Of a stretch of DNA of 64,000 nt, positions 24,585 to 56,455 are shown one piece after another (within the stretch, counting starts at the first letter, position 1; each line of letters begins with the position of its first letter). The notes beneath the pieces are model-generated. The model made no database searches and was not told the DNA's origin. It worked only from the letters and a program-made list of their open reading frames with translations. The stretch covers positions 119,795 through 183,794 of the forward strand of contig CALVNL010000001.1 in the NCBI GenBank assembly GCA_944349655.1. Reading direction: 5' to 3'. Source of the stretch: an uncultured Clostridia bacterium (lineage in GTDB: Bacteria > Bacillota > Clostridia > Christensenellales > DTU072). Position numbers and translations under genes: made by a program.

Positions 24585-24651
24585 GAGCTAAAATTATTTC
24601 TAATTAAATAAAAAATTATAATTATATTCTAAATTTCGACATAAATTGCAG

Positions 24652-24680
24652 TTGACTTAAAGGGAATATAACTTTATAAT
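24652..24680 (+). promoter_or_regulatory. near-consensus sigma-A promoter for the PadR-like gene
   Basis: TTGACT (24652-24657), 17-nt spacer, TATAAT (24675-24680); AAGGAG SD at 24698-24703, ATG at 24711. Confidence 0.65.
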
Positions 24681-24689
24681 TTAGTTATA
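24667..24689. promoter_or_regulatory. inverted repeat overlapping the -10 box; candidate autoregulatory operator
   Basis: TATAACT (24667-24673), N9, AGTTATA (24683-24689) straddles the TATAAT box. Confidence 0.35.
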
Positions 24690-24710
24690 CGAATTTTAAG
24701 GAGTTTATCC

Positions 24711-26258
24711 ATGGAAACGGTAAATACCGATATGTTGCGAGGGAGAGTAGATATATTCGTCCTCAAAGCATTAAGCGAAAACGACGGATACGGATACGAT
24801 ATCCTGAATTACATTCATTCACGCACCGAAGGTCATTATGAAATGAAACAGTCTTCGATTTACAGCGTACTTAAAAGGCTGGAAAAGCAAGGCTATGTTT
24901 ATTCCTATAACGGCGACGAAACCAACGGGGCAAAAAGAAGATACTATTCCCTTACCGAAGCCGGGAGAAAAATGCTCGATGACGAGGAAAAAGAATGGGC
25001 TTATACCAGGACTTTGCTGGATAACCTCGTTTCCGACCGTAATTTCGACCTGAAAACCGATACGCCTCCCTTCAGACCCTCCGATTTGCGTCCGTTAACG
25101 AGAAGAGGTCCGAGGTCTGAGGATAGCGACCAGTCGGAACAGGAAAACAACTCGTTAAAGCAGGTTGAATCCGATAATGATTCCGTAAAGACAGAAAAAA
25201 CCGAAATTACCGTAAACGTGTATCCTATTACCGAGAACGTGACGGTAAAAGAAGAAGTAAAGGAAATAAAATCCGAAACATCGGATAGCGAACAAGTTTT
25301 AATTTCCGAAACCTCTTTACCTGTCGAAGGAAATTCCGCCGTGCAAGAATCTGCGTCCGTTTCACCGACGGAAGACACCTCTTTTACCGATATATCCGAT
25401 AATCGTGACGATATCGTGCAGTCCTCCGAAAAATCGATAACTACCGATGAAATATCGAAAGTGGCGGCAACTACCGATACTGCGGAAAATCTGTATGTAC
25501 CTTTCTCGCCATCACAAGAAAAAAGATTAAACGAAAGCATCACGCCTTCTAAAGTTTCAATAGAGGAAAAATCAAGCGAAAAAGTACTTTATAATCGTCC
25601 CGTTACCGAGAAAGCAAAAGTTTATACGTCCGGTTTCTCAAACAACGGCGAAAGCTATATCGATTTTTTCAGTAATCTTTTTAATGAAAAGAAACCCGAA
25701 GAAAAACCTTCCGTTTCCCGTAACGAAAAAGCGGATAATATAGATTGCTCGCATATTAACGACCTCAGAACCGTCCTTGACAAAGAAGGCATCAGGCTTC
25801 GGAACTACGAACCTATAAATGCGGGAAAAACGTCCATAAAATATGTTTTGGTGAATAAGATATTCCGAGACAGCATTGTTTTGTCATATCTTTTTACCGT
25901 GTTAAGTATGCTTATCGTATATTTTGTCAAAGATTTCGGGGTTTCGCTTAACGCATTGCTAATAGTTTGCGGAATAATGTTGATATTTCCCATTGTCGCG
26001 TTATTTGTATGCTTTAACAACCCCCTGAAGAGGAAAAAAGATAATTTAAGACCGAAGATTGTTCTTTCGATATGTCTTATAATTTATCTGGCATACTTTA
26101 TCGTAAATTTAATTATAAATCTTCTGATACCTAACGGAAACAGTCTCAATTCCCCTGCTACATATGCTCCGGCGGTTGCAGGACTGGTTATTCCTTTCTT
26201 CGGTTGTATTTTCGCATTACTTTACAAAACCGGAAATTATCATCTTAAAAACAAATAA
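24711..26258 (+). CDS. PadR-family winged-helix regulator fused to a long acidic/Ser-Thr-rich linker and a C-terminal 4-TM domain
   Basis: 515 aa; N-terminal about 100 aa is typical PadR (IFVLKALSENDGYGYDI...SSIYSVLKRLEKQGYV...RRYYSLTEAGR); about 250 aa of low complexity; hydrophobic helices in the last about 150 aa. Confidence 0.8.
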   Translation: METVNTDMLRGRVDIFVLKALSENDGYGYDILNYIHSRTEGHYEMKQSSIYSVLKRLEKQGYVYSYNGDETNGAKRRYYSLTEAGRKMLDDEEKEWAYTRTLLDNLVSDRNFDLKTDTPPFRPSDLRPLTRRGPRSEDSDQSEQENNSLKQVESDNDSVKTEKTEITVNVYPITENVTVKEEVKEIKSETSDSEQVLISETSLPVEGNSAVQESASVSPTEDTSFTDISDNRDDIVQSSEKSITTDEISKVAATTDTAENLYVPFSPSQEKRLNESITPSKVSIEEKSSEKVLYNRPVTEKAKVYTSGFSNNGESYIDFFSNLFNEKKPEEKPSVSRNEKADNIDCSHINDLRTVLDKEGIRLRNYEPINAGKTSIKYVLVNKIFRDSIVLSYLFTVLSMLIVYFVKDFGVSLNALLIVCGIMLIFPIVALFVCFNNPLKRKKDNLRPKIVLSICLIIYLAYFIVNLIINLLIPNGNSLNSPATYAPAVAGLVIPFFGCIFALLYKTGNYHLKNK

Positions 26259-26290
26259 GCTATTAAACCTTAAATAACAACATCTATTAA

Positions 26291-26330
26291 AAAAAACCGC
26301 CTTGATTTAAGAATGTTCAGGCGGTTTATT
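26291..26330. terminator. bidirectional rho-independent terminator between convergent genes
   Basis: AAAAAACCGCCT ... AGGCGGTTTATTT: GC-rich stem (26294-26302 / 26319-26327) flanked by an A-run and a T-run. Confidence 0.75.
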
Positions 26331-26359
26331 TATATGTAAGTTTTAGTATAGATTTTTTT

Positions 26360-27454
26360 TCAGAATGAAATAGGTTTATCTTCCTTTTCCAGAATTTTTT
26401 CCGATGTTTCGTTCGCTTGTTTTAGTTCTTCTATTTTTTTTGCTTTTTGAGCATTTACGATATTGGTAAGCCGAGCGTTGGTCTCCTGATAAATTTCATC
26501 GGGAGTTTTTTCATTTTTAACTATATGATCAGAGGTAGGAGTTTTAATTTTATAAATAGCGTTGATATCGGTAATTATAGGTTTTCCGGTAATTTTAGAC
26601 AAAAATTTAAGCATAAAGCTTTCAATTTTATCGGCAAACTTCCACATTAAAATAAATACCGCAACAAAAGCTGCCACTATTAGTATCCATACCGCAATCC
26701 CCCAACCGGAAAAGGGAATGGACATTATATTATCTACCAGTAAGACCGTCCCTGCTACGTTAATCGGTCTGGAAATGAGCTGCACCAAAATAAATACGGG
26801 ATAACTCATTGTGGTAAGTCCGGCGATAAGGCATAACATATCGTCGGGGAAAACGGGAAATATAAACATATAAATAAGCATAGCTTTATCTTTCCCTTTA
26901 ACGAAATTATTATATTTAATGAGCACTTCCTCACCGATGCACCATTTAACCAATTTAACACCGAAAGTGCGTCCTAAGAAAAATGCAACGAAAGAACCTA
27001 TCCACAACCCTATGCAGCAAAGCAAAATTGCTTCCCAGGCAGGATAAAGCATTGCTCCCGCCGCGGTTACTATAGTACTGGGAATGGGTATAAAAGTCAC
27101 TTGCAAAAACTGTATAAGCACAAAAATAGCTTTTCCGGCTATCCCGAATCCTTTAATCAATTCCACCAGTTCTTCGGCGCTGTCGATATTTTCAAAGACG
27201 CCTGTTTTGGCAATTATCGCGGTTATACCGATGATAAGGATCCCGCAAATCACTCCTAAAAATGTAAATTTATATATTTTTTCCTTTTCAAGAAAAATTC
27301 CTAAAGCAAAAAGACCGATAATAACGGGTATAAAGCAAAAAATTACTATTTGAATTATTTTAGAAAAATAGCTGAAAGACAAAGAAGCGACCACGATATA
27401 AAATATCGAGCAAATTATTCCGATTATAAGTCGCTTTTTCTTTTTATCGGACAT
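26360..27454 (-). CDS. TVP38/TMEM64 (DedA-related) family membrane protein with a charged C-terminal tail
   Basis: 364 aa; multiple TM helices, conserved VTFIPIPSTIVTAAGAMLY-type segment; about 90-aa hydrophilic tail. Confidence 0.75.
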   Translation of the reverse strand: MSDKKKKRLIIGIICSIFYIVVASLSFSYFSKIIQIVIFCFIPVIIGLFALGIFLEKEKIYKFTFLGVICGILIIGITAIIAKTGVFENIDSAEELVELIKGFGIAGKAIFVLIQFLQVTFIPIPSTIVTAAGAMLYPAWEAILLCCIGLWIGSFVAFFLGRTFGVKLVKWCIGEEVLIKYNNFVKGKDKAMLIYMFIFPVFPDDMLCLIAGLTTMSYPVFILVQLISRPINVAGTVLLVDNIMSIPFSGWGIAVWILIVAAFVAVFILMWKFADKIESFMLKFLSKITGKPIITDINAIYKIKTPTSDHIVKNEKTPDEIYQETNARLTNIVNAQKAKKIEELKQANETSEKILEKEDKPISF

Positions 27455-27895
27455 TCAATCCTCCAGCATCTTTATTTCTTTTCTCGCTAATTCGTCGCAA
27501 CGGTTATTATATTCGTTGTCGCTATGCCCTTTGACTTTAACAAAATTAACGTTATGTTTTTTTACCTCAATAAGCAAGGCTTTCCATAAATCCACGTTTT
27601 TAACCGCATTTCCTTGTGCCGTCCTCCAGTTTTTTGCCTGCCAATCGTTAATCCACCCTTTGAAAAAAGGTTCGAGAGAATATGCGCTGTCACTGTAAAT
27701 AGTTACGTCGCAACGTTCCTTGAGCTGTAAGAGAGCGTTGATTATCGCGAATAATTCCATTCGGTTATTGGTTGTTTCCGGATAACCGCCGGAAATAACT
27801 TTTTCGTGTCCTTTATATATTAAAATCGCTGCCCATCCGCCCTTACCCGGATTATTGCTGCAAGCTCCGTCTGTATAGATATCAACGTGTTTCAT
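27455..27895 (-). CDS. rnhA: ribonuclease HI
   Basis: 146 aa; IYTDGACSNNPGKGGWAAIL, catalytic D-E-D-D pattern (NNRMEL, SDSAY, GHSDNEYNNRCDELA). Confidence 0.93.
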   Translation of the reverse strand: MKHVDIYTDGACSNNPGKGGWAAILIYKGHEKVISGGYPETTNNRMELFAIINALLQLKERCDVTIYSDSAYSLEPFFKGWINDWQAKNWRTAQGNAVKNVDLWKALLIEVKKHNVNFVKVKGHSDNEYNNRCDELARKEIKMLED

Positions 27896-28695
27896 TATAA
27901 TTTCTCACTTAATAATGCGGATTTTTTCCTGCAAGCCTCAACTCCTTCGGCAACAATCTCCACTAAATTTCTATCTTTATATACTTCCACGGCCTCTATG
28001 GTCGTTCCTCCTTTGGAACAAACTTTATCTACCAAGGTATCGAGATTTTCTTCACTATTCAATGCAAGATCAGCAGCGCCTATGATGGTATTAAGTGCAA
28101 GTTGTTTACTTTCTTCGTAGCTGAGTCCCCCGTTCATTCCGCCTTCTATCATTCCTTTAGCAAACATATAAACGTAAGCAGGACCGCTTCCACTGACAGA
28201 AGTTACGGCATCGAATTTACTTTCATCGAGAATAACCACTCCGCCGCAAGCCGAAAGCATTTTTTCTACGAATAGTTTTTCCGTTTCGTCGGTTCCGTCG
28301 AAAGCAACTCCGCAAACTCCCTTTCCGTTTGCGCAAGGTGTATTAGGCATTATTCTGACGATACTTCCTCGAAAATTGTTCAACTTCGATTTGAGAACGT
28401 TTATTTTTACTCCCGCCATTATAGACATTACTTTCGTAATCTGTCCGAAATCCGTTTCCTTACATAATTCCGCGTAATGCTGCGGTTTTACGGCAAATAA
28501 AATCCTTTCCGACGAGGAAACCAATTCCGAAAAGGAATTACAAACGGAAATTTCATAAGGAAAAGCTTTGATTTTCTCTTCAGCAATATCAAAAACGGCA
28601 ACTTCTTGCGGTTTTAATATATTTTCCGACAAAATTCTTTTAATGATGGCTTGTCCCATCACCCCGAATCCCACAACACCTATTTGGTATTTCAT
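27895..28695 (-). CDS. proC: pyrroline-5-carboxylate reductase
   Basis: 266 aa; N-terminal Rossmann VGFGVMGQAI, C-terminal GGTTIEA signature. Confidence 0.92.
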   Translation of the reverse strand: MKYQIGVVGFGVMGQAIIKRILSENILKPQEVAVFDIAEEKIKAFPYEISVCNSFSELVSSSERILFAVKPQHYAELCKETDFGQITKVMSIMAGVKINVLKSKLNNFRGSIVRIMPNTPCANGKGVCGVAFDGTDETEKLFVEKMLSACGGVVILDESKFDAVTSVSGSGPAYVYMFAKGMIEGGMNGGLSYEESKQLALNTIIGAADLALNSEENLDTLVDKVCSKGGTTIEAVEVYKDRNLVEIVAEGVEACRKKSALLSEKL

Positions 28696-28715
28696 AACAA
28701 ACTCTCCTCTTTTTC

Positions 28716-28744
28716 TTGACTAAACGTCATATTTATTTTATAAT
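28716..28744 (+). promoter_or_regulatory. consensus sigma-A promoter for tRNA-Trp
   Basis: TTGACT (28716-28721), 17-nt spacer, TATAAT (28739-28744); the tRNA 5' end is at 28760. Confidence 0.7.
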
Positions 28745-28759
28745 ATCAAAGTAACTTAC

Positions 28760-28834
28760 AGGGGAGTGGCTCAATGGTAGAGCAGCGGTCTCCAAAACCG
28801 CTGGTTGCGTGTTCGAATCGCGTCTCCCCTGCCA
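28760..28834 (+). tRNA. trnW: tRNA-Trp (anticodon CCA), 3' CCA encoded
   Basis: Cloverleaf by hand: acceptor AGGGGAG/CTCCCCT, D arm GCTC-AATGGTA-GAGC, anticodon arm GCGGT-CTCCAAA-ACCGC, T arm GCGTG-TTCGAAT-CGCGT, discriminator G plus CCA. Confidence 0.93.
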
Positions 28835-31134: not shown

Positions 31135-33372
31135 TTATTTTTCCTCGTCGTTCAGTTTGATGTTAAACCAGTCACCGAGAGTAATTCCGGAATTTCCGGA
31201 AACATATTCTCTGGGTTCATCGTCAACTTCATCCTTGATCCGTTTTGCTTTTCTTTCCTTCTTATCGCCTTTTTCAGCGGATTTTGCACTACGTTTTTCT
31301 TCTTCGTCCTCAGCTTCGAAAACAGGTTCTGCCGGAAGAAGTTCCTTGATACTCAGATTGATTTTGTCTCCGTCGTATTTAAGAACTTTGACTTCAACTT
31401 CATCTCCTTCATTAAGCACGTCATGTACATCGTTGGTACGGGTACGTTTAATCTGACTGATATGAACCAATCCGTCTATTCCGGGCTCGATTTCCACGAA
31501 AGCACCGAAACTGACTATTCTGACGACCTTACCTTTAACTACGGAACCTTCGGGGTATTTCTCTTGTGCTATCTCGATAGGATGTTTTTGCAACTGTTTG
31601 TATCCGAGAGAAATTTTTCCGGTTTCTCTGTTAGCGGAAAGCACGATAAAATCGTAAGTTTTATTGAGTTCGAGATATTCGGAAGGATCGGTTATTTTCT
31701 TTTTAACCCAAGTGAGTTCCTGATTGCGGACCAAGCCGTCCATAAGTTTCAGACTTACGAACACGCCGAAGTCGGTAAATCTCTTGACTTTGCCTTTAAC
31801 TATGGCACCTTCGTATATGCCCGCCCAGAATTCTTCTTCTTTAGCGGCTTTTTCCGCTTCGAGAATAACTTTCTGGCTTGCCACGATACGCTTAGCGTTA
31901 CGAGGTTTCTTCAGATTGCCCTCTTCGTCGTATTCTTCTTTAGGCGGTAAAGCCTTAAGACGTAAAGGTTTTCCGACATAATCGGCAAGATTTTTTACAA
32001 AACCGATACGGATTTGCGACGCGGGAACAAAAACGGTATAAGTTCCGATTTTGCCGAGAAGCCCGCCTTTGATTTCCTGAGTGCAAGCAAGAGTAAATTC
32101 TTCTCCTGCAAGTATTTTCTTTACGTGTTCATCGTCAGCCTTGAGAGCGTCGTAAGCTTTTTTGCTGAGATTGATGGCTTTTTCTTTGCTTCCGCTTTCT
32201 TTGGGGATAATAATGGCTTCGATTTCGTCGCCTACGTTATAATTGGCAGGATCGTAAGAGCCGTCCGTTTCAGCTTCTTCTTTTGCGATAAAACCGCAAT
32301 CGTTCTTTCCTCCGCCGTCAACGGAAACCGTTATACCCGTCACGTCAGCTTTAACTACGTGAGTTTTAAGACGCATACCTTCGCGATAATTGCGGGTCTG
32401 AATCTTTTTCATGGCGTCTGCCATTGTGGTGATCTCGGCTTCGGCTTTTTCTTCGCGTTTCTCGCCGTTATCCGCATTAACTGCGGCGCTCACTTCTTCT
32501 TTGACTTCATCAACTGCGTTGTTGATTACGTTTTGCTCGTTCATCCTGTTAAAAACCTCCATAGTCAACTCTTCGGGAGTCGACGCGCCGGACAATATTC
32601 CGGTCTTACCTGATTTGATATTTATCTGCAACGACTTAACATCGTTAACATTCTCGATAAAAAAGACGTTTTTACAAAAATTTGCGGCGGTAGAAAATAA
32701 TTTATTGCAATTAGAACTGCTTTTGTCTCCGACAATAATGATATTTTCGCAAGCCGAAGCGATTTCTTCCGCTTTATTTTGTCTTTCCACTGTAGTATAA
32801 CAAATACTGTCGAAAAATTCAACTGTTTTAGATAAATTTTCGGCGATTATTTTAATATTATTCTTTATTTCACAATATTTTTTTAAGGGATAAGTCGTCT
32901 GAACGCAGACAAAATACTTGTCTGAAAGCGAAAAATCTATTTCCTCGGCGGAATTGACTATCATACAACCGTCCGTCTGTCCCGCCGAACCGATAATTTC
33001 AGCGTGAAAAGGGTCGCCGATAATAACGATTTTCCAGCCTTCTTCGGCTTTCGAGATAATTTCCTTATGAATTTTTTTAACGAAAGGACAAGTCGCGTCT
33101 ATTACAGTACGTTGATTTTTTAATAATTCTTCCGTTCCTTTATCGCATCCGTGCGCGCTTATTATTACGGGTACCTTATCGTCCGGCAATTTTTCTTTAT
33201 AATAAACGCCTTTTTCCGATAAAACCGACACCACGCTTTTATTATGAATAATCGGGTGTAACGTATAGACTTTACCGTATTCGGAAGCGGCGGAGAGACA
33301 TTTTTCCACCGCTCTTTTTACCCCCGCGCAAAATCCGTACGGACCTAAAATTATCGACATACGTATTGGCAA
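31135..33372 (-). CDS. ispH: bifunctional 4-hydroxy-3-methylbut-2-enyl diphosphate reductase (IspH) / ribosomal protein S1-like fusion
   Basis: 745 aa; N-terminal about 280 aa IspH/LytB (GFCAGVKRAV, HGCDKG, ATCPFV), followed by four S1 OB-fold repeats and an acidic/Lys-rich tail. Confidence 0.9.
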   Translation of the reverse strand: MPIRMSIILGPYGFCAGVKRAVEKCLSAASEYGKVYTLHPIIHNKSVVSVLSEKGVYYKEKLPDDKVPVIISAHGCDKGTEELLKNQRTVIDATCPFVKKIHKEIISKAEEGWKIVIIGDPFHAEIIGSAGQTDGCMIVNSAEEIDFSLSDKYFVCVQTTYPLKKYCEIKNNIKIIAENLSKTVEFFDSICYTTVERQNKAEEIASACENIIIVGDKSSSNCNKLFSTAANFCKNVFFIENVNDVKSLQINIKSGKTGILSGASTPEELTMEVFNRMNEQNVINNAVDEVKEEVSAAVNADNGEKREEKAEAEITTMADAMKKIQTRNYREGMRLKTHVVKADVTGITVSVDGGGKNDCGFIAKEEAETDGSYDPANYNVGDEIEAIIIPKESGSKEKAINLSKKAYDALKADDEHVKKILAGEEFTLACTQEIKGGLLGKIGTYTVFVPASQIRIGFVKNLADYVGKPLRLKALPPKEEYDEEGNLKKPRNAKRIVASQKVILEAEKAAKEEEFWAGIYEGAIVKGKVKRFTDFGVFVSLKLMDGLVRNQELTWVKKKITDPSEYLELNKTYDFIVLSANRETGKISLGYKQLQKHPIEIAQEKYPEGSVVKGKVVRIVSFGAFVEIEPGIDGLVHISQIKRTRTNDVHDVLNEGDEVEVKVLKYDGDKINLSIKELLPAEPVFEAEDEEEKRSAKSAEKGDKKERKAKRIKDEVDDEPREYVSGNSGITLGDWFNIKLNDEEK

Positions 33373-34019: not shown

Positions 34020-35276
34020 TTATTTAATATTCGAACCGGCGCAATATCCGGTTGAGAGCGCAATCTGTATATTAAAACCTCCGGTGAAAGCGTCAACGTC
34101 TAAAACTTCACCGGCAAAATAAAGATTTTCTACAAGTTTACTTCTCATATCGGCAGGATTAACTTCTTTTACAGAAACACCCCCTGCCGTAACCACGGCA
34201 CCGCTCAATTCCTCGCACCCTTCTATACCGAAAGTCCAGTTTTTCAAAGTTTTAACTAAAGAAAAACGTTCTTCTTTGGTGACTGAATTGATTTTTTTAT
34301 CGGGTTTAATTCCGCAAGCGGTTATGACGGAAGGAATAAGTCCCGACGGCAATAAAGCGTCGAGAGAATTTTTGAAATCCTTATTTAACGTTACTGAAAA
34401 ATCACGTAGAATACGAGAATTCAATTCCTCTTCACTCAATGCAGGCTTCAAATCGATCTGAAGTTTCAGGGAAGTAAAATCCATTCTGTTTATTTTGGAA
34501 GACAGGGTTAAAATAACTGGGCCGCTCACGCCTCTATCGGTAAAAATCATTTCCCCGAATTCCTCGAACAGCATTTTTCCGTTTCGAACTACCGAAACCC
34601 GAACGTTTTTCAAAGAGACTCCCCGCAATCTGCTTAAATTCCCGAAAGAAAAGGTTTTTCCGCCCGAACCGTACATATTCGATAGACGCAAACCCGTTAA
34701 GGCGGCGACTACGGGAACTACAGTATGTCCCGTCTCTTCGGCAAAACGGTATCCGTCCCCGTCGCTTCCCGTAGACGGATAGCTCATTCCCCCCGTAGCT
34801 ACGATAACAGCGTCGCAATCGGTATACGAATGTTTATCCGTAACGATTTCTATAATTTTATTGTCTGAAGAATTAAGGGATAAAACTTTTTCGTTCAAAC
34901 GAACTTCCACGCCGCTTTGATTAAGCAACTTCGAAAAGGCTTTTATGATATCGCTGGACTTGTCCGAGGAAGGAAAAACCCTGTTCCCCCTTTCGATTTT
35001 AAGTTCGGTTCCGCCGCTTTCCACCAAAGACATCGTTTCCGCTGCTCCGAAATTACGCAGTGCGGAATAAAGAAATTTGGGATTTGTTACGACGTTTGAA
35101 ATAAACTCGTCAAAAGAACAGGCGTTGGTTAAATTGCAACGCCCTTTTCCGGTAATATAAAGTTTTTTACCGATTTTTTCGTTCTTTTCGAGCAACGTAA
35201 CCGAGTGTCCTTTTCGGGAAGCCGCTATAGACGCGGCTATCCCTGCGGGCCCGGCTCCGATAACGTAAACTTTCAT
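34020..35276 (-). CDS. NAD(P)/FAD-dependent oxidoreductase, HI0933/BaiN-like flavoprotein
   Basis: 418 aa; VIGAGPAGIAASIAA dinucleotide fold, GKGRCNLTN motif, C-terminal FAGEVLDVDAFTGGFN. Confidence 0.85.
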   Translation of the reverse strand: MKVYVIGAGPAGIAASIAASRKGHSVTLLEKNEKIGKKLYITGKGRCNLTNACSFDEFISNVVTNPKFLYSALRNFGAAETMSLVESGGTELKIERGNRVFPSSDKSSDIIKAFSKLLNQSGVEVRLNEKVLSLNSSDNKIIEIVTDKHSYTDCDAVIVATGGMSYPSTGSDGDGYRFAEETGHTVVPVVAALTGLRLSNMYGSGGKTFSFGNLSRLRGVSLKNVRVSVVRNGKMLFEEFGEMIFTDRGVSGPVILTLSSKINRMDFTSLKLQIDLKPALSEEELNSRILRDFSVTLNKDFKNSLDALLPSGLIPSVITACGIKPDKKINSVTKEERFSLVKTLKNWTFGIEGCEELSGAVVTAGGVSVKEVNPADMRSKLVENLYFAGEVLDVDAFTGGFNIQIALSTGYCAGSNIK

Positions 35277-37000
35277 TATCCGATATAAGCTATTACGTCC
35301 CCGGTGTTTATTTTGTCTCCTTCCTTTACGGTCACGGAAACTATACCGTCTTTTGTCGCGGCTATTTCGTTTTCCATTTTCATAGCTTCGAGTATAATAA
35401 CAGCGTCTCCTTTTTTCACTGCGGTACCGTTTGCGGCTTTTATTTTCAAAACCGTTCCCGGCATAGGCGCCGTTACGGGCGTGCCTTCGCCTTTAACGGA
35501 AGGCGCAGCTTTAACTTCTGCCACGGGAGCAGCCGCAGGTTGCGGTGCGGGAGCGACAGTAGTAGACGCGTTTTCGGGTCTGATATAGTCGCTGTCCTTT
35601 ACTTCCACTTCATACGTTTCTCCGTCCACCGTAACGGTAAATTTTCTTTTATGAATTTCCTCTCTCCACTTAAAGAATTTTTCCGATACTTGCGGGAACA
35701 TACAATAACTGAGAACATCCTCGTCCTTAGTATAATAAGGCATCATCTCCGCCTTATATTTTTCATACTCGGGCTCTAAAAGATCGGCAGGACGACAAGT
35801 GATACGTTTTTCGTCGCCTATACATTTCTTTACGATTTCGGGATCGGGTTCCGCGGGAAGTTTTCCGTATTCACCTTTAAGAACGCCTTTTGTCTCTTTG
35901 GTAACCATTTTATAACGTTCCCCGGTAACTACGTTGAGTACGGCCTGTGTTCCGACTATCTGACTGGTAGGCGTAACGAGCGGAGGATAACCGAGATCTT
36001 TTCTTACTCTGGGCACTTCTTCCAGAACGGCAAGATATTTATCGCTGGCTCCCTGTTCTTTCAACTGATTGATAAGATTGCTGAGCATGCCGCCGGGTAC
36101 CTGGTAAATAAGCGCGTTCACGTCCACTTTCAATACTTTGGGGTTGAGGAATCCGTCTTTGGTAAGTCTTTCGGCAACTTTAGTAAAATGTTTGGCGATT
36201 TCGTTCAGAAGTTCGAGATCCAGACCCGTATCGAACTTTGTACCCTTAAGCGTAGCCACGATGGGTTCGGTAGCGGGCTGGCTGGTACCGTTGGCTAAAG
36301 GAGAAAGTGCGGTATCGATAATATCCACGCCGGCTTCGATAGCTTTCATATAGGTCATATCGCCCGTTCCCGAGGTATTATGGGTATGCAGATGTACTGG
36401 AATTTTAACGGAACTCTTTATCGCTTTGACGAGTTCGAACGCGTCGTAAGGCAACAAAAGGTTAGCCATATCCTTTATGCAAAGAATATCCGCCCCCATC
36501 TTTTCAAGTTCTTTTGCAAGATTGACGAAATAATCGATATTATGAACGGGACTGGTCGTATAACTGAGCGCGGCTTCCACTATTCCGCCGTATTTCTTCG
36601 TGGACATAATGGCTTGACGGAGATTACGGATATCGTTAAGCGCGTCGAAAATACGCAGTATATCGATACCGTTTTCAATGGATTTTTTAACGAACATATC
36701 CACAACGTCGTCGGCGTAGTGCTTATAACCTAAAAGGTTCTGACCTCTAAGCAGCATCTGAAGTTTGGTATTGGGTAAACCTTCTTTCAATGCACGAAGT
36801 CTGTCCCACGGGTCTTCGTGTAAAAATCTGAGACAGGAGTCGTAAGTAGCGCCACCCCAACATTCCACCGAAAAATATCCGACTTTGTCCATTTTATCGA
36901 GAATGGGCAACATTTCTTCGGTTTTCATTCTGGTAGCCGCTTGCGACTGGTGTGCGTCACGCAAAATAGTTTCCGTTATAAGTAATTGTTTTTTAGCCAT
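35276..37000 (-). CDS. oadA: oxaloacetate decarboxylase alpha subunit (5S-type carboxyltransferase with C-terminal biotinyl domain)
   Basis: 574 aa; ITETILRDAHQS TIM-barrel carboxyltransferase start, Ala/Pro linker, biotinylation motif EAMKMENEI. Confidence 0.88.
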   Translation of the reverse strand: MAKKQLLITETILRDAHQSQAATRMKTEEMLPILDKMDKVGYFSVECWGGATYDSCLRFLHEDPWDRLRALKEGLPNTKLQMLLRGQNLLGYKHYADDVVDMFVKKSIENGIDILRIFDALNDIRNLRQAIMSTKKYGGIVEAALSYTTSPVHNIDYFVNLAKELEKMGADILCIKDMANLLLPYDAFELVKAIKSSVKIPVHLHTHNTSGTGDMTYMKAIEAGVDIIDTALSPLANGTSQPATEPIVATLKGTKFDTGLDLELLNEIAKHFTKVAERLTKDGFLNPKVLKVDVNALIYQVPGGMLSNLINQLKEQGASDKYLAVLEEVPRVRKDLGYPPLVTPTSQIVGTQAVLNVVTGERYKMVTKETKGVLKGEYGKLPAEPDPEIVKKCIGDEKRITCRPADLLEPEYEKYKAEMMPYYTKDEDVLSYCMFPQVSEKFFKWREEIHKRKFTVTVDGETYEVEVKDSDYIRPENASTTVAPAPQPAAAPVAEVKAAPSVKGEGTPVTAPMPGTVLKIKAANGTAVKKGDAVIILEAMKMENEIAATKDGIVSVTVKEGDKINTGDVIAYIG

Positions 37001-37032
37001 AGAGACAACCTCCCGTTATCGAATATATAAAA

Positions 37033-38472
37033 TTAACCGAACATGGCGAGCAGAACGCCTGCGGCAACTGCGCTGCCGATAACGCCTGCTACGTTCGGAC
37101 CCATTGCGTGCATAAGCAAATAATTGTTCGGATCTTCTTTCCTGCCCACGTCTTGAGCTACTCTCGCCGCCATCGGAACGGCACTCACGCCCGCCGCACC
37201 GATAAGAGGATTGATCTTTCCGCCGGAAATTTTGTTCATAAGTTTTCCGAGCAGAACGCCGCCAGCCGTACCGAAGCTGAAAGCTAAAACGCCGAGCACG
37301 ATAATTCCGAGAGTGGATACGCTAAGGAATACCGGTGCAAAAGCTTTGGTTCCGACGACCACGCCGAGGAATATCGTAATTATATTGATTAGTTCGTTCT
37401 GAGCGGTATTGGAAAGACGAGGAACGACTCCGCTTTCCTTAATAAGGTTACCGAGCATCAGCATACCGATAAGAGGTAAAGCCGCAGGAAGAATTATACC
37501 GCAGATACCGGTAACGACTATGGGGAAAATTATCTTTTCCTTTTTGGAAACGGGTCTCAACTGTTCCATACGGATAAGACGCTCTTTTTTGGTAGTCAGT
37601 AACTTCATTATCGGCGGTTGGATAACCGGCACCAACGCCATATAAGAATAAGCCGCGATTGCTATAGCCGGCAAAAGATCCATAGTTTTGCCGTTGAACA
37701 TCGTACCTATGGCACTATTTGCCATTTTCTGAGTTAGATAAATAGCGGTAGGTCCGTCGGCTCCGCCGATGATTGCGATAGCCGCAGCGGCCTGTTCGTT
37801 GAAACCGAAGAACAACGCCCCGAAGAAAGTCAGGAATATCCCCAACTGAGCCGCCGCCCCGAGCAGAAGGGATTTCGGATTTGCTATCAACGGTCCGAAG
37901 TCGGTCATAGCTCCTATCCCGAGGAAAATAAGCGGCGGGAAGATAACCCAGTCCACACCTTTATAAAGATAATAGAATAGACCTTTATCGGCAATTATTC
38001 CGCTGGTATAAACTATTTCTCCTCCCAACGAAGGATCCCAGAGATTACTGTTCTTTACCGCTTCGACAAGACTCTCAAGCGAAGCGTTCAAAGTATCTGC
38101 ACTCGCCGGATTATAGACCACGTTGAATGTTTCGCAAAGCTGTTGAAGAGTACCAGATGCTATAACGGTATTGGTGGCGCTGTCGGTAAACGTATATCCC
38201 GTAGTTCCGTAAAGAATGTTATAAGCTCCGGGGATATTTATAATAAACATACCGAAAGCTATACTCAAAAGCAAATTAGGTTCAAACTTTTTGACTATAG
38301 CGAGATATACAAGGAAGGAAGCGATAACGAGCATAAGGAGCATACCCCATATACCCCAGCTGTAACCTTCCATAACGTAATATTCGGGAACGGGATTTGC
38401 TATACCCGTGGACTCCCACAAATTTTTCAGAGACTCGCCTAAACTTGCGGCGGTAAGCGAATTAAAAATCAT
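37033..38472 (-). CDS. oadB: sodium ion-translocating decarboxylase beta subunit
   Basis: 479 aa polytopic membrane protein; conserved GAMTDFGPLIANP and GGADGPTAIY segments of the OadB/GcdB/MmdB family. Confidence 0.9.
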   Translation of the reverse strand: MIFNSLTAASLGESLKNLWESTGIANPVPEYYVMEGYSWGIWGMLLMLVIASFLVYLAIVKKFEPNLLLSIAFGMFIINIPGAYNILYGTTGYTFTDSATNTVIASGTLQQLCETFNVVYNPASADTLNASLESLVEAVKNSNLWDPSLGGEIVYTSGIIADKGLFYYLYKGVDWVIFPPLIFLGIGAMTDFGPLIANPKSLLLGAAAQLGIFLTFFGALFFGFNEQAAAAIAIIGGADGPTAIYLTQKMANSAIGTMFNGKTMDLLPAIAIAAYSYMALVPVIQPPIMKLLTTKKERLIRMEQLRPVSKKEKIIFPIVVTGICGIILPAALPLIGMLMLGNLIKESGVVPRLSNTAQNELINIITIFLGVVVGTKAFAPVFLSVSTLGIIVLGVLAFSFGTAGGVLLGKLMNKISGGKINPLIGAAGVSAVPMAARVAQDVGRKEDPNNYLLMHAMGPNVAGVIGSAVAAGVLLAMFG

Positions 38473-38849
38473 TTATTCCCTCCGATAATGGTTGCTAAAA
38501 TATCCCCCGTATTCACTTTATCTCCGCAATTAACGCAGATATGAACGACACCGTCGGCGGTGGCGGCAATTTCGTTTTCCATCTTCATAGCCTCGAGAAC
38601 GACTACGGCTTGACCGACTTTTACCGAAGAACCTTCGGAAACTTTGACGGAAAGCACCGTGCCCGGCATCGGAGCCGTAACCTTAATTCCGTCACCGACG
38701 GGAGTTTTTACGGGAACCGGTGAAGCAGATTTGATTTCGGCTTCATTCTTTACCGGAGCTACAGGAGCTGCAACCTGATTGCCCAAGGTAGTTTCTTCCA
38801 CCGTAACTTCGAATTTTTTTCCGTTAATACTTACAGAATATGATTTCAT
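38469..38849 (-). CDS. free-standing biotin carboxyl carrier (biotinyl/lipoyl domain) protein
   Basis: 126 aa; Ala/Pro/Val linker then LEAMKMENEI biotin attachment motif; resembles the GcdC/MmdC-type carrier. Confidence 0.85.
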   Translation of the reverse strand: MKSYSVSINGKKFEVTVEETTLGNQVAAPVAPVKNEAEIKSASPVPVKTPVGDGIKVTAPMPGTVLSVKVSEGSSVKVGQAVVVLEAMKMENEIAATADGVVHICVNCGDKVNTGDILATIIGGNK

Positions 38850-38864
38850 TTCCGTCCTCCTATA

Positions 38865-39230
38865 TTACAGCTTACGGACCGAAACGATTTCGGGATTATC
38901 GTGTTTTTTACCGTCGTTAGCGTTTTCACGAAGATATATTTCCACTGCGGAACGAATCGCAAGCATTTTTTCGGCGGAAATATCGGTTTCGGACTTTTCA
39001 GCTTCGGGAATCTTCTCTTCCGTCAAAGAAGCGGCCGCGGATGCTTTTTTAGCTTTAGATGAAGCTTTACTTTTATCCAACCATTGTGTAAGATACTTCA
39101 GTATCAAATTTATAAACATTATCAAAACAATTAAAAGAGCCAGTACGACAAAAGTCATGCCCAGCCCTAACAAAGTGGTGATACCGCCAACGGAAAACAT
39201 TTCTCCTACGGTCAATGCGCTTAAAGTCAT
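38865..39230 (-). CDS. oadG: OadG-family decarboxylase gamma subunit (single-TM anchor)
   Basis: 121 aa; N-terminal TM helix GLGMTFVVLALLIVLIMFINLI; first gene of the decarboxylase cluster. Confidence 0.7.
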   Translation of the reverse strand: MTLSALTVGEMFSVGGITTLLGLGMTFVVLALLIVLIMFINLILKYLTQWLDKSKASSKAKKASAAASLTEEKIPEAEKSETDISAEKMLAIRSAVEIYLRENANDGKKHDNPEIVSVRKL

Positions 39231-45376: not shown

Positions 45377-45979
45377 CTAAAAAATCAGAACAAAAATTAT
45401 AATCGTCGCAATCGTAAAAGCCAAATTCCAGCAAAGACACCGCAAGTAATATTTTTTGAGATTATTCAAAAGAAATGCGCCGTTACATTTCAAAGGAGTA
45501 ACATATTTCCAGGAACAAAAGTTCACGGTGTTATCCAAAAGAGTAAGAAAATAAATCAGATATATAACGGCATTTATTATAAAAAGCGGAATATAAAGGA
45601 ATATAAGCCCTATTATTCCTCCCAGATCGAAACACAATGCCCTGAAAACGGTTTTCCAGAAAAACGTTGAAATTATATAAATTAAAGGATAATTCAATAA
45701 AAATACCAGCGAATTAAAGGTAAGCAAAGCCGCAAGACATAAAAAAATCCCTGGAACAATCATTACTTTAAGAAAGAAAAAGAAATAATTGAAACTTCCG
45801 TCGGAAATTTTTGAAGCCAAGGAAGGCGTTTCTCCGAACTCGTCCACCGAAGCCACGGCAGAAAGCAATCCGGCAAAAACGGCTACGGTAAAAATTACGG
45901 AAAAAAGTTTATTTTTCAGAAAAAGTCTTCTGAAAGAAAGCAAACGGTTTTTAACCCAAAAAGAAAGACGACCGAACAT
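45377..45979 (-). CDS. polytopic membrane protein, function unknown (weak SpoIIM-like resemblance)
   Basis: 200 aa, about 5 TM helices; architecture and a KISDGS segment after TM1 recall B. subtilis SpoIIM (recalled from memory, not aligned). Confidence 0.4.
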   Translation of the reverse strand: MFGRLSFWVKNRLLSFRRLFLKNKLFSVIFTVAVFAGLLSAVASVDEFGETPSLASKISDGSFNYFFFFLKVMIVPGIFLCLAALLTFNSLVFLLNYPLIYIISTFFWKTVFRALCFDLGGIIGLIFLYIPLFIINAVIYLIYFLTLLDNTVNFCSWKYVTPLKCNGAFLLNNLKKYYLRCLCWNLAFTIATIIIFVLIF

Positions 45980-49383: not shown

Positions 49384-50109
49384 AAAACCGGACTTCTTTT
49401 TCAATAAAATTAAATATTCCTGATTTTTTTCTTCAAAAGGATGCGGAGCTTCCGTCAATCCCTCTTCCGCAAGTCCCAACTCCTTGCAAAATTGCTCCAC
49501 GCTTTTTACCGCCGACAATCTGAGTTTTTCGTTTTTAACGATACCTTTTTTAGTCAAATCTTTTGCCGAACATTCGAATTGCGGTTTGATAAGGGCTATA
49601 ATTATTCCGTCTTGCGTAAGTACTTCGCTTATCGGACCGAGAACAAGTTTAAGCGAGATGAAACTTACGTCGACTACGGCAATTTGCGGAATAACGGTAA
49701 ATTGCTCCTTTTTTATAAATCGAGCATTGGTTTTATCCATAATCTCTACGCGAGAGTCTTTTTTCAATCTTTCCGGTAAAGCACATTCGCCTACGTCCAA
49801 ACAATACACTTTCCGAGCGCCGTTTTTTAACAGTACGTCGGTAAATCCCCCGTTGGACGCGCCTACGTCCAGACAAACTTTTCCCTTAGGCTCTATAGCG
49901 AAACTTTCCAACGCTTTTATGAGCTTTATACCGCCGAGGGATGCTTCGTAATTTTCGGTAACGATTACTTCATCTTTCTTTTCTACGTCAAAGGAACATT
50001 TAGACACGGTTTTTCCGTTTACGGAAACTCTTCCCAACGCTATGAGGTTTGCCGCCCTCGTGCGACTTTCGGCAAGTCCGTTATCGAAGAGATATTTATC
50101 CAATCTCAT
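49375..50109 (-). CDS. tlyA: TlyA family 16S/23S rRNA (cytidine-2'-O)-methyltransferase
   Basis: 244 aa; S4 domain, FtsJ-type SAM motif LDVGASNGGFTD. Confidence 0.92.
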   Translation of the reverse strand: MRLDKYLFDNGLAESRTRAANLIALGRVSVNGKTVSKCSFDVEKKDEVIVTENYEASLGGIKLIKALESFAIEPKGKVCLDVGASNGGFTDVLLKNGARKVYCLDVGECALPERLKKDSRVEIMDKTNARFIKKEQFTVIPQIAVVDVSFISLKLVLGPISEVLTQDGIIIALIKPQFECSAKDLTKKGIVKNEKLRLSAVKSVEQFCKELGLAEEGLTEAPHPFEEKNQEYLILLKKKSGFIA

Positions 50110-50825
50110 TTTTTATTCCTCGGACGATAAAAGACTCCGAGAACCCTTCCCGCAAACATAACCATATCTTTTGAATTTTTTATCGCTATGCTTTTGAAAA
50201 AAGCCTTGCCTCCGACAGTTACCGCCGAAACCACGGAACTCATTATAATATTGAAAATATACATATTGGGATTGTCTGCGGCAAATTTAAGAACTATTGC
50301 GGCGGCGCAAGTACCGCTGATAATCCCTGCCATATCGCCGACTACGTCGTTGCAAATGTTTGCTACCTTTTCGGCGTTTTTTACCAGTTTTACGGCAACG
50401 GAAGCCCCTGCGACTTTTCTTGCAGCCATTGACAGCAAGGGCGCGGGATCGCAGCTGGTAACGGCCACCCCTATCGCGTCGAAAACGATAGCGATTACTA
50501 TCAACAGACAAAGCAACAATACGGAAATTATAACGTTGGATTTAGAAGACGTAATTTCCGTTATAAAGCTAACGAAAAAGGATAAAAATAAAGTGATTAT
50601 GGTGATTTTTATAGTCCAGACAGTACCCTTGGAAAGTTTCCTGCGGGGTTTGTCCTTTTTTTTGTCTTCATTTTTGGCTTTCGCGTCCTTAACGCCGTCT
50701 TTTGCCTGAACTTCTTCTTTTTTAACGTTGGACTCCGGATTACAACTCTCGTCACTACATTCGACGGTATCAGAAAATGAATTGTCTTCCTTCGATTTCC
50801 ATTCTCCCGATGCGGATTGTTTCAT
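50106..50825 (-). CDS. oapA: small 4-TM membrane protein, candidate OLE-associated protein A
   Basis: 239 aa; about 70-aa Lys/Glu/Asp-rich N-terminal extension, then four hydrophobic helices with a DVVGD motif; immediately downstream of the structured RNA, GGGAG SD. Confidence 0.6.
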   Translation of the reverse strand: MKQSASGEWKSKEDNSFSDTVECSDESCNPESNVKKEEVQAKDGVKDAKAKNEDKKKDKPRRKLSKGTVWTIKITIITLFLSFFVSFITEITSSKSNVIISVLLLCLLIVIAIVFDAIGVAVTSCDPAPLLSMAARKVAGASVAVKLVKNAEKVANICNDVVGDMAGIISGTCAAAIVLKFAADNPNMYIFNIIMSSVVSAVTVGGKAFFKSIAIKNSKDMVMFAGRVLGVFYRPRNKK

Positions 50826-50845
50826 ATTGCTCCCAAAAAAAATAC

Positions 50846-51414
50846 AGGTGGCATAAGCTAAGTAAACCTTGCGTCATAGGTTCGGTAGGATTTCCCCGTA
50901 GACCACTTGCCGTCGCCGTACAAGCAGTTTCCTATTATAGCCTACGTGACCGGATTACTCCGAGTCAGACCGAATTGCCACTCAGAACACACTATAATCC
51001 TTAGCCTATGTCAGTCTAGAAGATTTCCTTTACAGATTTGAAACAGTTTATCCTCTTTTGCAAAGAGGGTTTCATCGGACAATAGATCGGATTTATCGGC
51101 CAACAAATCCTTTCGTGATTCCGAATCCGCCGCCTTCACTCAAGGCAAGCTACACTGCACACAGCTATTTGTTACCGCATTACAGGTTTAATCCCATTCA
51201 GCAAAAGAGTGGATACTTCTGCCGATATGGGTCTCCGCGATAATTGGGTCGGCTTCCGTATGCCGTTACGGAACGCCCAAAAATCTTAACTCCCAGCACC
51301 AGCCCTGGTTTGGGCAACCAAAGCCAGCACAAGAAACTTCATCGATATGCTCTTTAACGGTATTTTAACCCCGTCTTCGACTGTTTCGCACCTGACTAGA
51401 ATACTGTGCCACCT
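50846..51414 (-). ncRNA. ole: large structured non-coding RNA, candidate OLE (ornate, large, extremophilic) RNA
   Basis: ORF-free gap between ispA and the membrane protein; GC-richer than its flanks; closing helix AGGTGGCA/TGCCACCT plus several internal hairpins; operon context nusB-folD-xseAB-ispA-[RNA]-membrane protein-tlyA-argR-recN matches the published OLE context; ends approximate. Confidence 0.7.
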
Positions 51415-51424
51415 TCTATTGATT

Positions 51425-51453
51425 ATATTATCATATATTCTTAAAATAATCAA
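51425..51453 (-). promoter_or_regulatory. candidate promoter directly upstream of the structured RNA
   Basis: Minus strand TTGATT (51453-51448), 17-nt spacer ending in TGa, TAATAT (51430-51425); the predicted start lies a few nt before the closing helix. Confidence 0.4.
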
Positions 51454-51508
51454 ATTATTTCAAGTTTACTTGTAAATTCAAAAAATTGAGAAAAAACCTT
51501 TTATTCAG

Positions 51509-52321
51509 CTATTTGGTTCTATTCAAGAGGAACTCCGTCAGATTGCGTAAATTATCGGCATTTTCAAACGGCTCTAAAGCCTTAAACGCTATTTTCCCGA
51601 GTTTTGCAACCATATCGGCGGTATGCTCCTTTCCAGTTACGCCGAGGTAAGATTTAGGTTCGGATTTATTCTCGTCCAAAAGGTCGTCTTTTAATTGAAA
51701 ACACAACCCTATTGCGGAAGCGAAAGTTCCGAGCGCGTTAAATTTTTCTCTGTCGGCGCAAACGAAAGCCGGACAAAGAGCCGCAGCGCAAATCAATGCA
51801 CCCGTTTTTTTCATACATAATTCGGTAATCAACGTTTCGTCAAATGCATCTATAGAAAATTCCATCGCCTGACCGCCTATCATACCTTCCGCTCCGGCGC
51901 ATTTTGCTAAATAAGAAGCCGCCGTAATAAGATCAGGGTCGGTTTTAACCGCTTCGAAAAGATTTTCATAAGCAAGATTAAGCAACGCGTCTCCGGCAAG
52001 AAGCGCTATGGCTTCCCCGAAGGCTTTATGACAGGACGTTTTTCCCCTGCGAAAATCGTCGTCGTCCATGCACGGCAAATCGTCGTGAATCAAACTATAA
52101 TTATGGATAAGCTCCAAAGAAACGGCAAGCGGTAAAATTTTTTCCGAGGACACATCGACAAAATCGGCGGAAAGCAACATAAGATAAGGTCTGACTCTTT
52201 TACCCGAAGAAAAGACCGAGTATTCCATAGCCGAAAATAACCTTTCCGGATAAAGAGGTCGCTTCTCGTCAAAAAGCTTTCTTAGTGCATCTTCGGTTTT
52301 TTTAAGATAAGAATCAATCAT
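51509..52321 (-). CDS. ispA: farnesyl diphosphate synthase (polyprenyl synthetase family)
   Basis: Start moved to the ATG at 52321 (MIDSYLKK; ATGATTGA overlap with the xseB stop); DDxxD motifs LIHDDLPCMDDDDFRRG and FQLKDDLLD. Confidence 0.92.
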   Translation of the reverse strand: MIDSYLKKTEDALRKLFDEKRPLYPERLFSAMEYSVFSSGKRVRPYLMLLSADFVDVSSEKILPLAVSLELIHNYSLIHDDLPCMDDDDFRRGKTSCHKAFGEAIALLAGDALLNLAYENLFEAVKTDPDLITAASYLAKCAGAEGMIGGQAMEFSIDAFDETLITELCMKKTGALICAAALCPAFVCADREKFNALGTFASAIGLCFQLKDDLLDENKSEPKSYLGVTGKEHTADMVAKLGKIAFKALEPFENADNLRNLTEFLLNRTK

Positions 52322-52529
52322 CGTCCACCTCGGTTTCGACTTGAAGCTTTTCAAGTTCCTTGTTGAGAATTTCCATTTTGCCTTTTGCTTCGTTAAGTTC
52401 CTTGATGCTTTCCTTGGCGAGCTTAAGACCTTGTTCGTATAAATTCAGCCCTTCTTCAACTCCTATCTTTTCCTCAGAAAGTTTCTTGATTATTTGTTCA
52501 AGTTCTTTTGCATTTTTTTCGTAATTCAT
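52314..52529 (-). CDS. xseB: exodeoxyribonuclease VII small subunit
   Basis: 71 aa helical protein; LEQIIKKLSEE...LEEGLNLYEQG signature. Confidence 0.9.
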   Translation of the reverse strand: MNYEKNAKELEQIIKKLSEEKIGVEEGLNLYEQGLKLAKESIKELNEAKGKMEILNKELEKLQVETEVDDD

Positions 52530-55882: not shown

Positions 55883-56455
55883 TTATTTCATTGGATAGAT
55901 TTCCACGCTTGACGCGCTGACCTGCAGCACCGCTTGAACCGCTCGCATTATCGCAAGTCGGGTTACCGCGCTGTCCGCTCCTTCCGCCACAACGATGACC
56001 CCGAGAATTTCCGGCATGAGTTCCTTTATAACGTATGGTTCACTTTTTCCGCTGTTATTCACTATTATCGGAGACTCGGTAGAGCTCGTCGTACTCGTAA
56101 CGTTTCCGGATCCGCTTTGCGAAGTACTGGTGTTTGTGGTAACGGTATTCGCCGTTATCTTTTCCCCTGTGGATTTTGCCGTAATCAGTACCGAAGATTT
56201 TCCCACTCCGTTTATATCGGAAAGAACTGCCGCGAGTTTTTCTTCCAGCTCAGACACCGAAATGCTCGTTACTTCTTCTTCGGATAACGTTTCGTTATTT
56301 GTTTCACCTGAAGAAGTTTGCTTGTTCCCCACACCGGCAAATATGACTATCATAAGCGCGACGGCTATAACGCCGATGATTATTTCTATATGCTTTATCG
56401 ATTTAATTTTTTCGATAAGGTCTTTTATCTTGTTTTTAGTCTTAGACTCCGCCAT
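55883..56455 (-). CDS. spoIIIAG: stage III sporulation protein AG
   Basis: 190 aa; TM helix, Ser/Thr-rich insert, C-terminal GVIVVAEGA...VQAVLQV motif. Confidence 0.85.
   Translation of the reverse strand: MAESKTKNKIKDLIEKIKSIKHIEIIIGVIAVALMIVIFAGVGNKQTSSGETNNETLSEEEVTSISVSELEEKLAAVLSDINGVGKSSVLITAKSTGEKITANTVTTNTSTSQSGSGNVTSTTSSTESPIIVNNSGKSEPYVIKELMPEILGVIVVAEGADSAVTRLAIMRAVQAVLQVSASSVEIYPMK

Follow-up and report, generated by a model that had tools for sequence, protein, structure and literature searches.

The DNA stretch studied here (hereafter the window) comprises 64,000 nucleotides from an uncultured Clostridia bacterium (NCBI GenBank assembly GCA_944349655.1, contig CALVNL010000001.1, positions 119,795 to 183,794 of the forward strand), and all coordinates given below are those of the window. 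According to Pfam and NCBIfam, its minus strand carries the gene order efp-spoIIIAA-AH-asp23-nusB-folD-xseA-xseB-ispA, followed by a 683-bp gap (50826-51508), a gene for a membrane protein and tlyA-argR-recN-spoIVB. The genes that flank the gap are those named in an initial annotation, made from the sequence alone, which had also proposed that the gap encodes a candidate OLE (ornate, large, extremophilic) RNA and that the adjoining gene encodes its membrane partner OapA, a protein with four transmembrane helices. This is almost certainly the case: positions 50832-51428 (minus strand) correspond to a full-length OLE RNA, and the gene at 50106-50825 encodes OapA. With these two assignments the local order reads ispA-OLE-oapA-tlyA. 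This agrees with the neighbourhood published for OLE (PMC12265935) in all but one respect: oapA is followed by tlyA with no dxs gene in between, unlike in the cluster of Halalkalibacterium halodurans.

The whole window was scanned with Rfam 15 at gathering thresholds, and only two matches were obtained: one tRNA and the OLE family (RF01071, gathering threshold 50 bits). The OLE match, on the minus strand, scored 467.9 bits (E = 3.5e-134) and spanned model positions 1-616 of 616 without truncation. A covariance-model search of this strand had been proposed in the initial annotation as a check of the candidate, and it gave this end-to-end match. The Rfam structure was then transcribed onto the window RNA, and the transcription was verified against the DNA: the window RNA has 154 of the consensus pairs, and 141 of these (92%) are canonical. 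The minimum free energy (MFE) of the 582-nt core was -201.4 kcal/mol, versus -168.5 +/- 7.1 kcal/mol for shuffled sequences (z = -4.66), and none of the 100 shuffles folded as well.

The open reading frames (ORFs) of the gap, found on both strands, are only 42-75 amino acids (aa) long and mostly start with TTG or GTG, in agreement with the earlier statement that the gap has no credible ORF. The gap had also been described as GC-richer than its AT-rich flanks. This holds in comparison with the immediate AT-rich spacers (30-35% GC at 51400-51599), but not in comparison with the neighbouring genes (40-47%): the GC content of the OLE RNA is 46%, reaching 49% in intervals of 200 nt.

For the comparison with other OLE loci, genomes (one per species) were scanned with the exact pattern CAGTATTCTAGTCA-N(35-60)-ATCGATGAAG, and at least 120 loci were found. 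Nearly all the matches listed came from Bacillota, including Bacillaceae, Alicyclobacillus, Clostridium, Syntrophomonadaceae and Christensenellales-like metagenome-assembled genomes (MAGs). The pattern was also matched in three records labelled Varibaculum (Actinomycetota; L066), Fibrobacter MAG (L072) and Deltaproteobacteria MAG (L090). Binning errors, contamination or gene transfer probably account for these labels; the literature on OLE notes 24 such non-Bacillota hits and the same explanation.

A regular expression for the 3' motif removed about half of the 120 listed loci, and the 56 complete loci that were retained were aligned with the window RNA (57 sequences) using MAFFT, without fitting to the structure. 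When the Rfam structure was projected onto this alignment, 86.1% of the 8,838 cells paired, versus 41-47% when the 3' partners were slid by 1-3 columns. Double-sided changes were found at 132 of the 160 pairs, the covariation score was 0.525 (versus 0.12-0.16 after sliding) and the observed values were reached in 0 of 500 shuffles. Covariation in homologous loci, another check that had been proposed, was found, and the aligned sequences support the consensus OLE fold.

The long-range helices P1 and P3/P3.1 are both missing from the Rfam structure line, and both covary. In the consensus register, P1 is 96.7% paired in the 57 sequences, versus 27-70% in slid registers, with double-sided changes at six of its seven pairs (e.g. 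GGAUGGU/ACCAUCC, GAAUGAC/GUCAUUC and CGCUGGC/GCCAGCG). The window's own register gave merely 42% pairing, because a 1-nt deletion in the window RNA shifts the MAFFT columns, and it was replaced by the consensus register. The 8-bp helix that had been proposed to close the RNA (AGGTGGCA at 51414-51407 with TGCCACCT at 50853-50846) is P1 of the family. Its two strands, the T8 tract at 50842-50835 and the Shine-Dalgarno (SD) sequence and ATG of oapA all lie at the positions originally given. The last two pairs of the 8-bp helix, however, compete with P12: P1 proper has 6 bp, and the nucleotides of C51408-G50852 and A51407-U50853 also close P12. P3/P3.1 comprises 13 bp and is 85.8% paired, versus 30-54% after sliding, with a covariation score of 0.629 versus 0.08-0.19; its length fits that of P3 + P3.1, described as roughly 12 bp (PMC12265935).

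Among the internal hairpins that had been read from the window sequence, UUCCGUA/UACGGAA corresponds to P6.1 and the 15-bp G.U-rich hairpin to P5/P5.1, while GGAUUU/AAAUCC forms the tip of P9. A further one, CCUCUUU/AAAGAGG (51068-51052), is probably not part of the conserved fold, because its nucleotides pair elsewhere in the consensus, in the helices at the base of P9 (90-94% paired, with covariation); the single-sequence MFE fold nonetheless predicts this hairpin.

Judged by sequence, every element to which the literature has mapped a binding or dimerisation role is present in the window RNA (Table 1). From its position and its loop, we infer that the hairpin with the A-rich loop is P4, which would provide the A-A bridge of the OLE dimer (PMC12265935, PMC12286853). 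The GCCCA loop of P5.1 and the GGC of the P6.1 loop are complementary, which fits the kissing loops of PMC12265935. A symmetric kissing loop has been described by cryo-electron microscopy (cryo-EM) at the tip of P9 (PMC12286853). The tetranucleotide at this tip is GGCC in the window, CGCG in L005, GCGC in L093 and L106, and AGCU in L023, and such switches from one palindrome to another fit the symmetric kissing loop. All four dimerisation loops known from cryo-EM (A-rich, GCCCA, GGCA and GGCC) are present in the window RNA.

The protein-binding sites appear to be equally complete. The nucleotides of the kink-turn (k-turn) that would be recognised by OapC are kept, with C85 at 51344 and its proposed partner G144 at 51285; the substitution C85A abolishes OapC binding and function (PMC9723947). 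In P6, the GGG/CCC pairs (G151-153, C182-183) are invariant, and these pairs matter for the binding of bS21 in H. halodurans (PMC12054373). OapB binding requires a GNRA loop and a one-nucleotide bulge (PMC7936274): P13, the predicted OapB site, has the GNRA loop GUAA (50958-50955) and a single bulged C (50962), and P14.1 corresponds to a weak secondary OapB site (PMC7936274). In five Christensenellales-like loci (L008, L031, L064, L093 and L106), which are among the nearest relatives in the alignment, the P13 tip with the OapB-bound GNRA loop is absent (alignment columns 630-650), as in the reduced variant known from the literature; the site is complete in the window.

Table 1. Features of the ole-oapA locus (window coordinates; pairing and invariance refer to the alignment of 57 sequences)
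Feature	Coordinates	Strand	Basis or remark
ispA-type polyprenyl (farnesyl) diphosphate synthase	51509-52354	-	upstream neighbour of ole
Putative sigma-A promoter of ole	51422-51453	-	sequence
OLE RNA gene	50832-51428	-	extent of RF01071 match
OLE core, P1 5' strand to P1 3' strand	51414-50846	-	569 nt
P1 5' strand AGGUGG	51409-51414	-	covariation
P3 5' strand CAGGU	51394-51390	-	pairs with AUCUG 51037-51033
P3.1 5' strand GAAACAGU	51387-51380	-	pairs with ACUGUUUC 51047-51040
A-rich-loop hairpin GUUAAAAU	51356-51375	-	95.3% paired; UAAAA invariant in 57/57
J4a/5 AUCGAUGAAG, predicted 5' half of OapC-recognised k-turn	51337-51346	-	invariant in 57/57
P5/P5.1 hairpin	51290-51336	-	96.9% paired; 13 pairs with double-sided changes
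P5.1 loop GCCCA	51315-51311	-	complementary to GGC of P6.1 loop
P6/P6.1	51239-51285	-	P6.1 loop ACGGCA at 51266-51261
P7 hairpin	51231-51193	-	consensus helix, supported in alignment
P8 hairpin	51185-51155	-	consensus helix, supported in alignment
Long P9 arm	51051-51146	-	palindromic GGCC loop at 51101-51098
P3.1 ACUGUUUC and P3 AUCUG, 3' strands	51033-51047	-	covariation
P13 hairpin, predicted OapB site	50947-50967	-	UGACU-C-GGA[GUAA]UCC-GGUCA; 92.1% paired
P14.1 hairpin	50905-50925	-	consensus helix; GCGA tetraloop 50916-50913
P1 3' strand CCACCU	50846-50851	-	covariation
U8 tract after P1	50835-50842	-	family consensus tail also U-rich (model 600-610)
oapA, 239 aa	50106-50825	-	SD GGGAG 50834-50830; ATG 50825, 9 nt past U8 tract

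The gene adjoining ole was identified as follows. Its 239-aa product aligns with the ORF directly 3' of ole in 50 of the 56 other loci, with 41-50% identity to gut Clostridia and 30-37% to the Bacillaceae OLE loci. It shares with other OLE loci the motifs FDxxGxAxT, CNDV(I/V)GD (the DxxxD motif) and TVGGKA. The DxxxD motif, which sets OapA apart from CNNM domains (PMC11332333), is present as DVVGD (residues 160-164), and D160, G163, D164 and TVGGK are invariant in 50 database homologues. Four membrane helices (residues 66-95, 98-124, 141-184 and 189-216) were delimited with an AlphaFold2 model and hydropathy peaks; the mean predicted local distance difference test (pLDDT) score of the model is 71.7, and the core reaches values of about 80-88. 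The first 53-65 residues contain many K, E and D and, with pLDDT <50, are predicted to be disordered (residues 1-65 are encoded at 50631-50825). This tail is absent in Bacillaceae and of similar length in the closest homologues, and in related gut lineages OapA carries even longer charged N- or C-terminal extensions.

When the OapA model was searched against the PDB with Foldseek, the top four matches were 7m1t_B, 7m1t_A and 7m1u_A (MtCorB) and 7cfg (CorC transmembrane domain), with probabilities of 0.87-1.00; it is the fold search alone that links the protein to CorB/CorC. The same relationship to a CorB/CNNM-like fold has been described for H. halodurans OapA (PMC11332333). By its place next to ole, its DxxxD motif, its four membrane helices and its CorB/CNNM-like predicted fold, the 239-aa ORF is OapA, as the initial annotation had proposed. 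It shares with the H. halodurans protein (Block et al. 2011; PMC11332333) its position, the four helices, CNDV(I/V)GD, TVGGKA and a distant CNNM/CorB-like fold without CBS or CorC domains, and differs by about 65 extra residues at the N-terminus, many of them charged. In comparison with the MpfA/CorB/CNNM Mg2+ transporters, it shares the fold of the transmembrane domain (7m1t, 7m1u, 7cfg; borderline Pfam CNNM match), but it has no CBS-pair or CorC domains, has four helices instead of three and contains DxxxD, which CNNM domains do not (PMC11332333). An anticorrelation between OLE and mpfA has been reported (PMC11332333).

The locus had been presented as a divergent OLE example, and this was not borne out. 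Among the 222 alignment columns that are at least 90% conserved in the 56 other loci, the window RNA departs at about seven (about 215, or about 97%, are kept). It is full-length and typical of its well-described family, which has >2,800 known representatives across Bacillota (PMC11332333), and it is within reach of routine Rfam annotation. The closest OLE RNA among the matches listed, from Ca. Stercoripulliclostridium merdigallinarum (class Clostridia), is 78% identical. The window RNA has a G-to-A change at 51351 and a C-to-U change at 51148, both of which also occur in a few relatives. It is also without the GU after CUAGACU and without the small hairpin at model positions 424-435, and its P7 is 5 nt shorter than in the model; the small hairpin is likewise absent or reduced in other Clostridia (alignment columns 552-585). 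The same locus, 99.8% identical, was found in independent public assemblies: L001 contains the 5' and 3' junction sequences as in the window, and L002 spans the 3' junction only and also matches. The unusual positions are not assembly errors, because independent assemblies carry the same junctions.

Two reduced types of OLE RNA have been described: variant 1 has a shortened P7-P9 region and is usually without the OapB site, and variant 2 is without P7 and P8 (PMC11332333). Assignment to either variant was rejected: the window RNA has P7, P8 and a complete P13 site and belongs to the full-length type. It resembles the variants, which occur in the gut lineages TANB77 and RF39 (PMC11332333), in its origin from a gut Clostridia MAG and in its rather short P7-P9 region; unlike them, it keeps P7, P8 and a complete P13 OapB site. 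With the full-length type (RF01071; Puerta-Fernandez et al. 2006; Fernando & Breaker 2024, PMC11332333), it shares all consensus helices together with P1, P3/P3.1, P7 and P8, the P13/P14.1 loops, AUCGAUGAAG, the dimerisation loops, the U-rich tail, the ispA-ole-oapA context and the upstream promoter. Differences from this type are the A at 51407 and the junction deletion (both considered below), the absence of the 424-435 hairpin, the shorter P7, the absence of dxs and the host, which is an uncultured gut anaerobe and not a classical extremophile.

The putative promoter of ole has a perfect -10 box (TATAAT, 51427-51422), located 7 nt ahead of P1. The promoter originally proposed overlaps with it (TTGATT 51453-51448, 17 nt, TGaTAATAT 51433-51425). 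Its coordinates were correct, but with only 8 of 12 matching positions its hexamers did not appear in the output of the promoter scan; the perfect TATAAT lies 3 nt further downstream. The scan listed another candidate, at 51481-51454. A perfect TATAAT is present 4-25 nt upstream of P1 in 40 of the 56 OLE loci; for four control intervals lying farther upstream, the count is 0-1 of 56. The full TTGACA-16/17-TATAAT arrangement was found in many gut-clostridial OLE loci. It therefore appears that OLE loci in general have a dedicated promoter directly ahead of ole. This agrees with B. halodurans, in which ole lies in an operon, yet has its own promoter (PMC9723947). No hairpin-type intrinsic terminator (GC-rich local hairpin followed by a U run) was detected at 50835-50860 by the terminator scan: the helix ahead of the U8 tract is the long-range P1 and not a local hairpin.

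No result was counted against the identification of the OLE RNA, and the points that weigh against the joint assignment of RNA and protein are limits only. In the RNA, position 51407 is A where all 56 other loci have G, and one nucleotide is deleted at the P12/P1 junction relative to the same 56 loci. For the protein, the Pfam CNNM match (28.3 bits) falls just below the cut-off of 28.4 with no other domain detected, the NCBIfam scan gave no match, PDB sequence searches with the single protein and with a profile returned chance-level matches only, and the TM-scores of the Foldseek matches are low (0.32-0.37). Finally, neither OapB (YbzG, KOW) nor OapC (YbxF, L7Ae-type) was found among the approximately 60 Pfam-scanned ORFs of the 64-kb window. 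The genes oapB and oapC are normally unlinked to ole.

Some of these points could also be read as signs of decay, the locus then being a non-functional relic in a gut bacterium that no longer needs OLE. The A at the otherwise invariant G position 51407, the junction deletion, the loss of the GU after CUAGACU and of the small hairpin, and the absence of OapB and OapC from the window would all suit such a relic, and reduced OLE variants are known in related gut lineages (PMC11332333). A relic is nevertheless very improbable for an RNA that scores 468 bits over the full model and keeps about 97% of the conserved columns and 92% of the consensus pairs in canonical form, next to a conserved promoter box and an intact oapA with all invariant residues. 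The locus is, moreover, 99.8% identical in independent assemblies, and OLE RNAs of other Clostridia likewise lack the small hairpin or have a reduced one.

The RNA stops 1 nt ahead of the SD sequence of oapA, and the long-range helix followed by U8 just upstream of this SD could attenuate read-through. The element could on these grounds be regarded as merely a cis-acting leader (5' untranslated region) that controls oapA, and not as a stable ribonucleoprotein RNA. We give this view very little credence: members of the family are documented as abundant RNAs of about 600 nt that are stable, dimerise and have OapA, OapB and OapC as binding partners (PMC9723947, PMC7936274, PMC12286853), their binding and dimerisation elements are all conserved in the window, the terminator scan detected no hairpin behind OLE, and regulation of oapA could coexist with a ribonucleoprotein role. 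That the gap encodes one or more small proteins, to which its short ORFs on both strands might point, has a negligible probability, since most of these ORFs start with TTG or GTG, the conservation pattern is that of a paired RNA with compensatory changes and not codon-wise, and the covariance-model match accounts for the whole interval. A full-length OLE RNA next to its partner gene oapA is consequently the reading that we retain.

By analogy with H. halodurans and Clostridium, ole would be transcribed from its own promoter, and probably also within the nusB-to-recN operon transcript, and the RNA would accumulate as a stable species of about 570-600 nt. OLE RNAs are stable and abundant, bind OapA, OapB and OapC, and dimerise (PMC9723947, PMC7936274, PMC12286853). 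If the window RNA behaves like the OLE RNAs of H. halodurans and Clostridium, it would dimerise via the loops of P4, P5.1/P6.1 and P9; an OapA dimer would bind it (2:1) and tether it to the cell membrane, while P13 would be occupied by OapB and the k-turn by OapC. As in H. halodurans, the ribonucleoprotein may help the cell against short-chain alcohols, cold, excess Mg2+ and poor carbon sources.

The host is an uncultured, spore-forming gut clostridial bacterium. It was assigned on the basis of the assemblies that carry the locus, the nearest OLE RNA among the matches listed, the labels of the OapA homologues and the sporulation genes: the exact OapA sequence is present in two metagenome assemblies, its homologues carry the labels of Clostridia or Clostridiales MAGs, and the window contains spoIIIAA-AH, spoIVB, spoVAC/D/E and ytfJ. 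Samples that contain the organism include those behind ENA ERZ24773517 and Logan ERR4096591. The host belongs to Bacillota, as expected for OLE, whose hosts are typically anaerobes or extremophiles.

Two ORFs without a Pfam match lie among the sporulation genes. One (200 aa, 45377-45979, minus strand) directly follows spoIVB, where spo0A is often located in Clostridia; the other (190 aa, 55883-56455, minus strand) is flanked by spoIIIAF and spoIIIAH, where spoIIIAG would be expected. A second gene of the isoprenoid pathway was found about 18 kb from ispA: it encodes a fusion of IspH/LytB with S1 RNA-binding domains (745 aa, 31135-33372, minus strand). The genes at 35276-39230 (minus strand) form a cluster that encodes an oxaloacetate decarboxylase-type enzyme, a Na+-translocating decarboxylase, with its alpha, beta and gamma subunits and a small biotin carrier protein. 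On the plus strand, a tyrosine integrase gene (23502-24584) and a gene for a PadR-MFS fusion (24711-26258) are located a few kb from the sole tRNA of the window, a tRNA-Trp(CCA) detected with ARAGORN at 28760-28834, and the interval 23502-28834 may be the remnant of an integrated element.

With these assignments, the 683-bp "empty" gap becomes a gene, and the hypothetical membrane protein beside it becomes OapA. Beyond this identification, the window copy adds little to the OLE family. The conserved position of TATAAT upstream of P1 in the 56 loci lends support to the view that ole is generally transcribed independently in this family. The window also provides a full-length OLE RNA with an intact predicted OapB site from a gut lineage; among the relatives of this lineage, reduced variants are frequent. 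In view of the OapA tail, the rebuilt P1/P12 junction and the hairpin lost after CUAGACU, there is a small chance that this gut-clostridial lineage assembles a slightly different OLE particle; if so, these features together might affect how the 3' domain is built or which protein partners the particle has.

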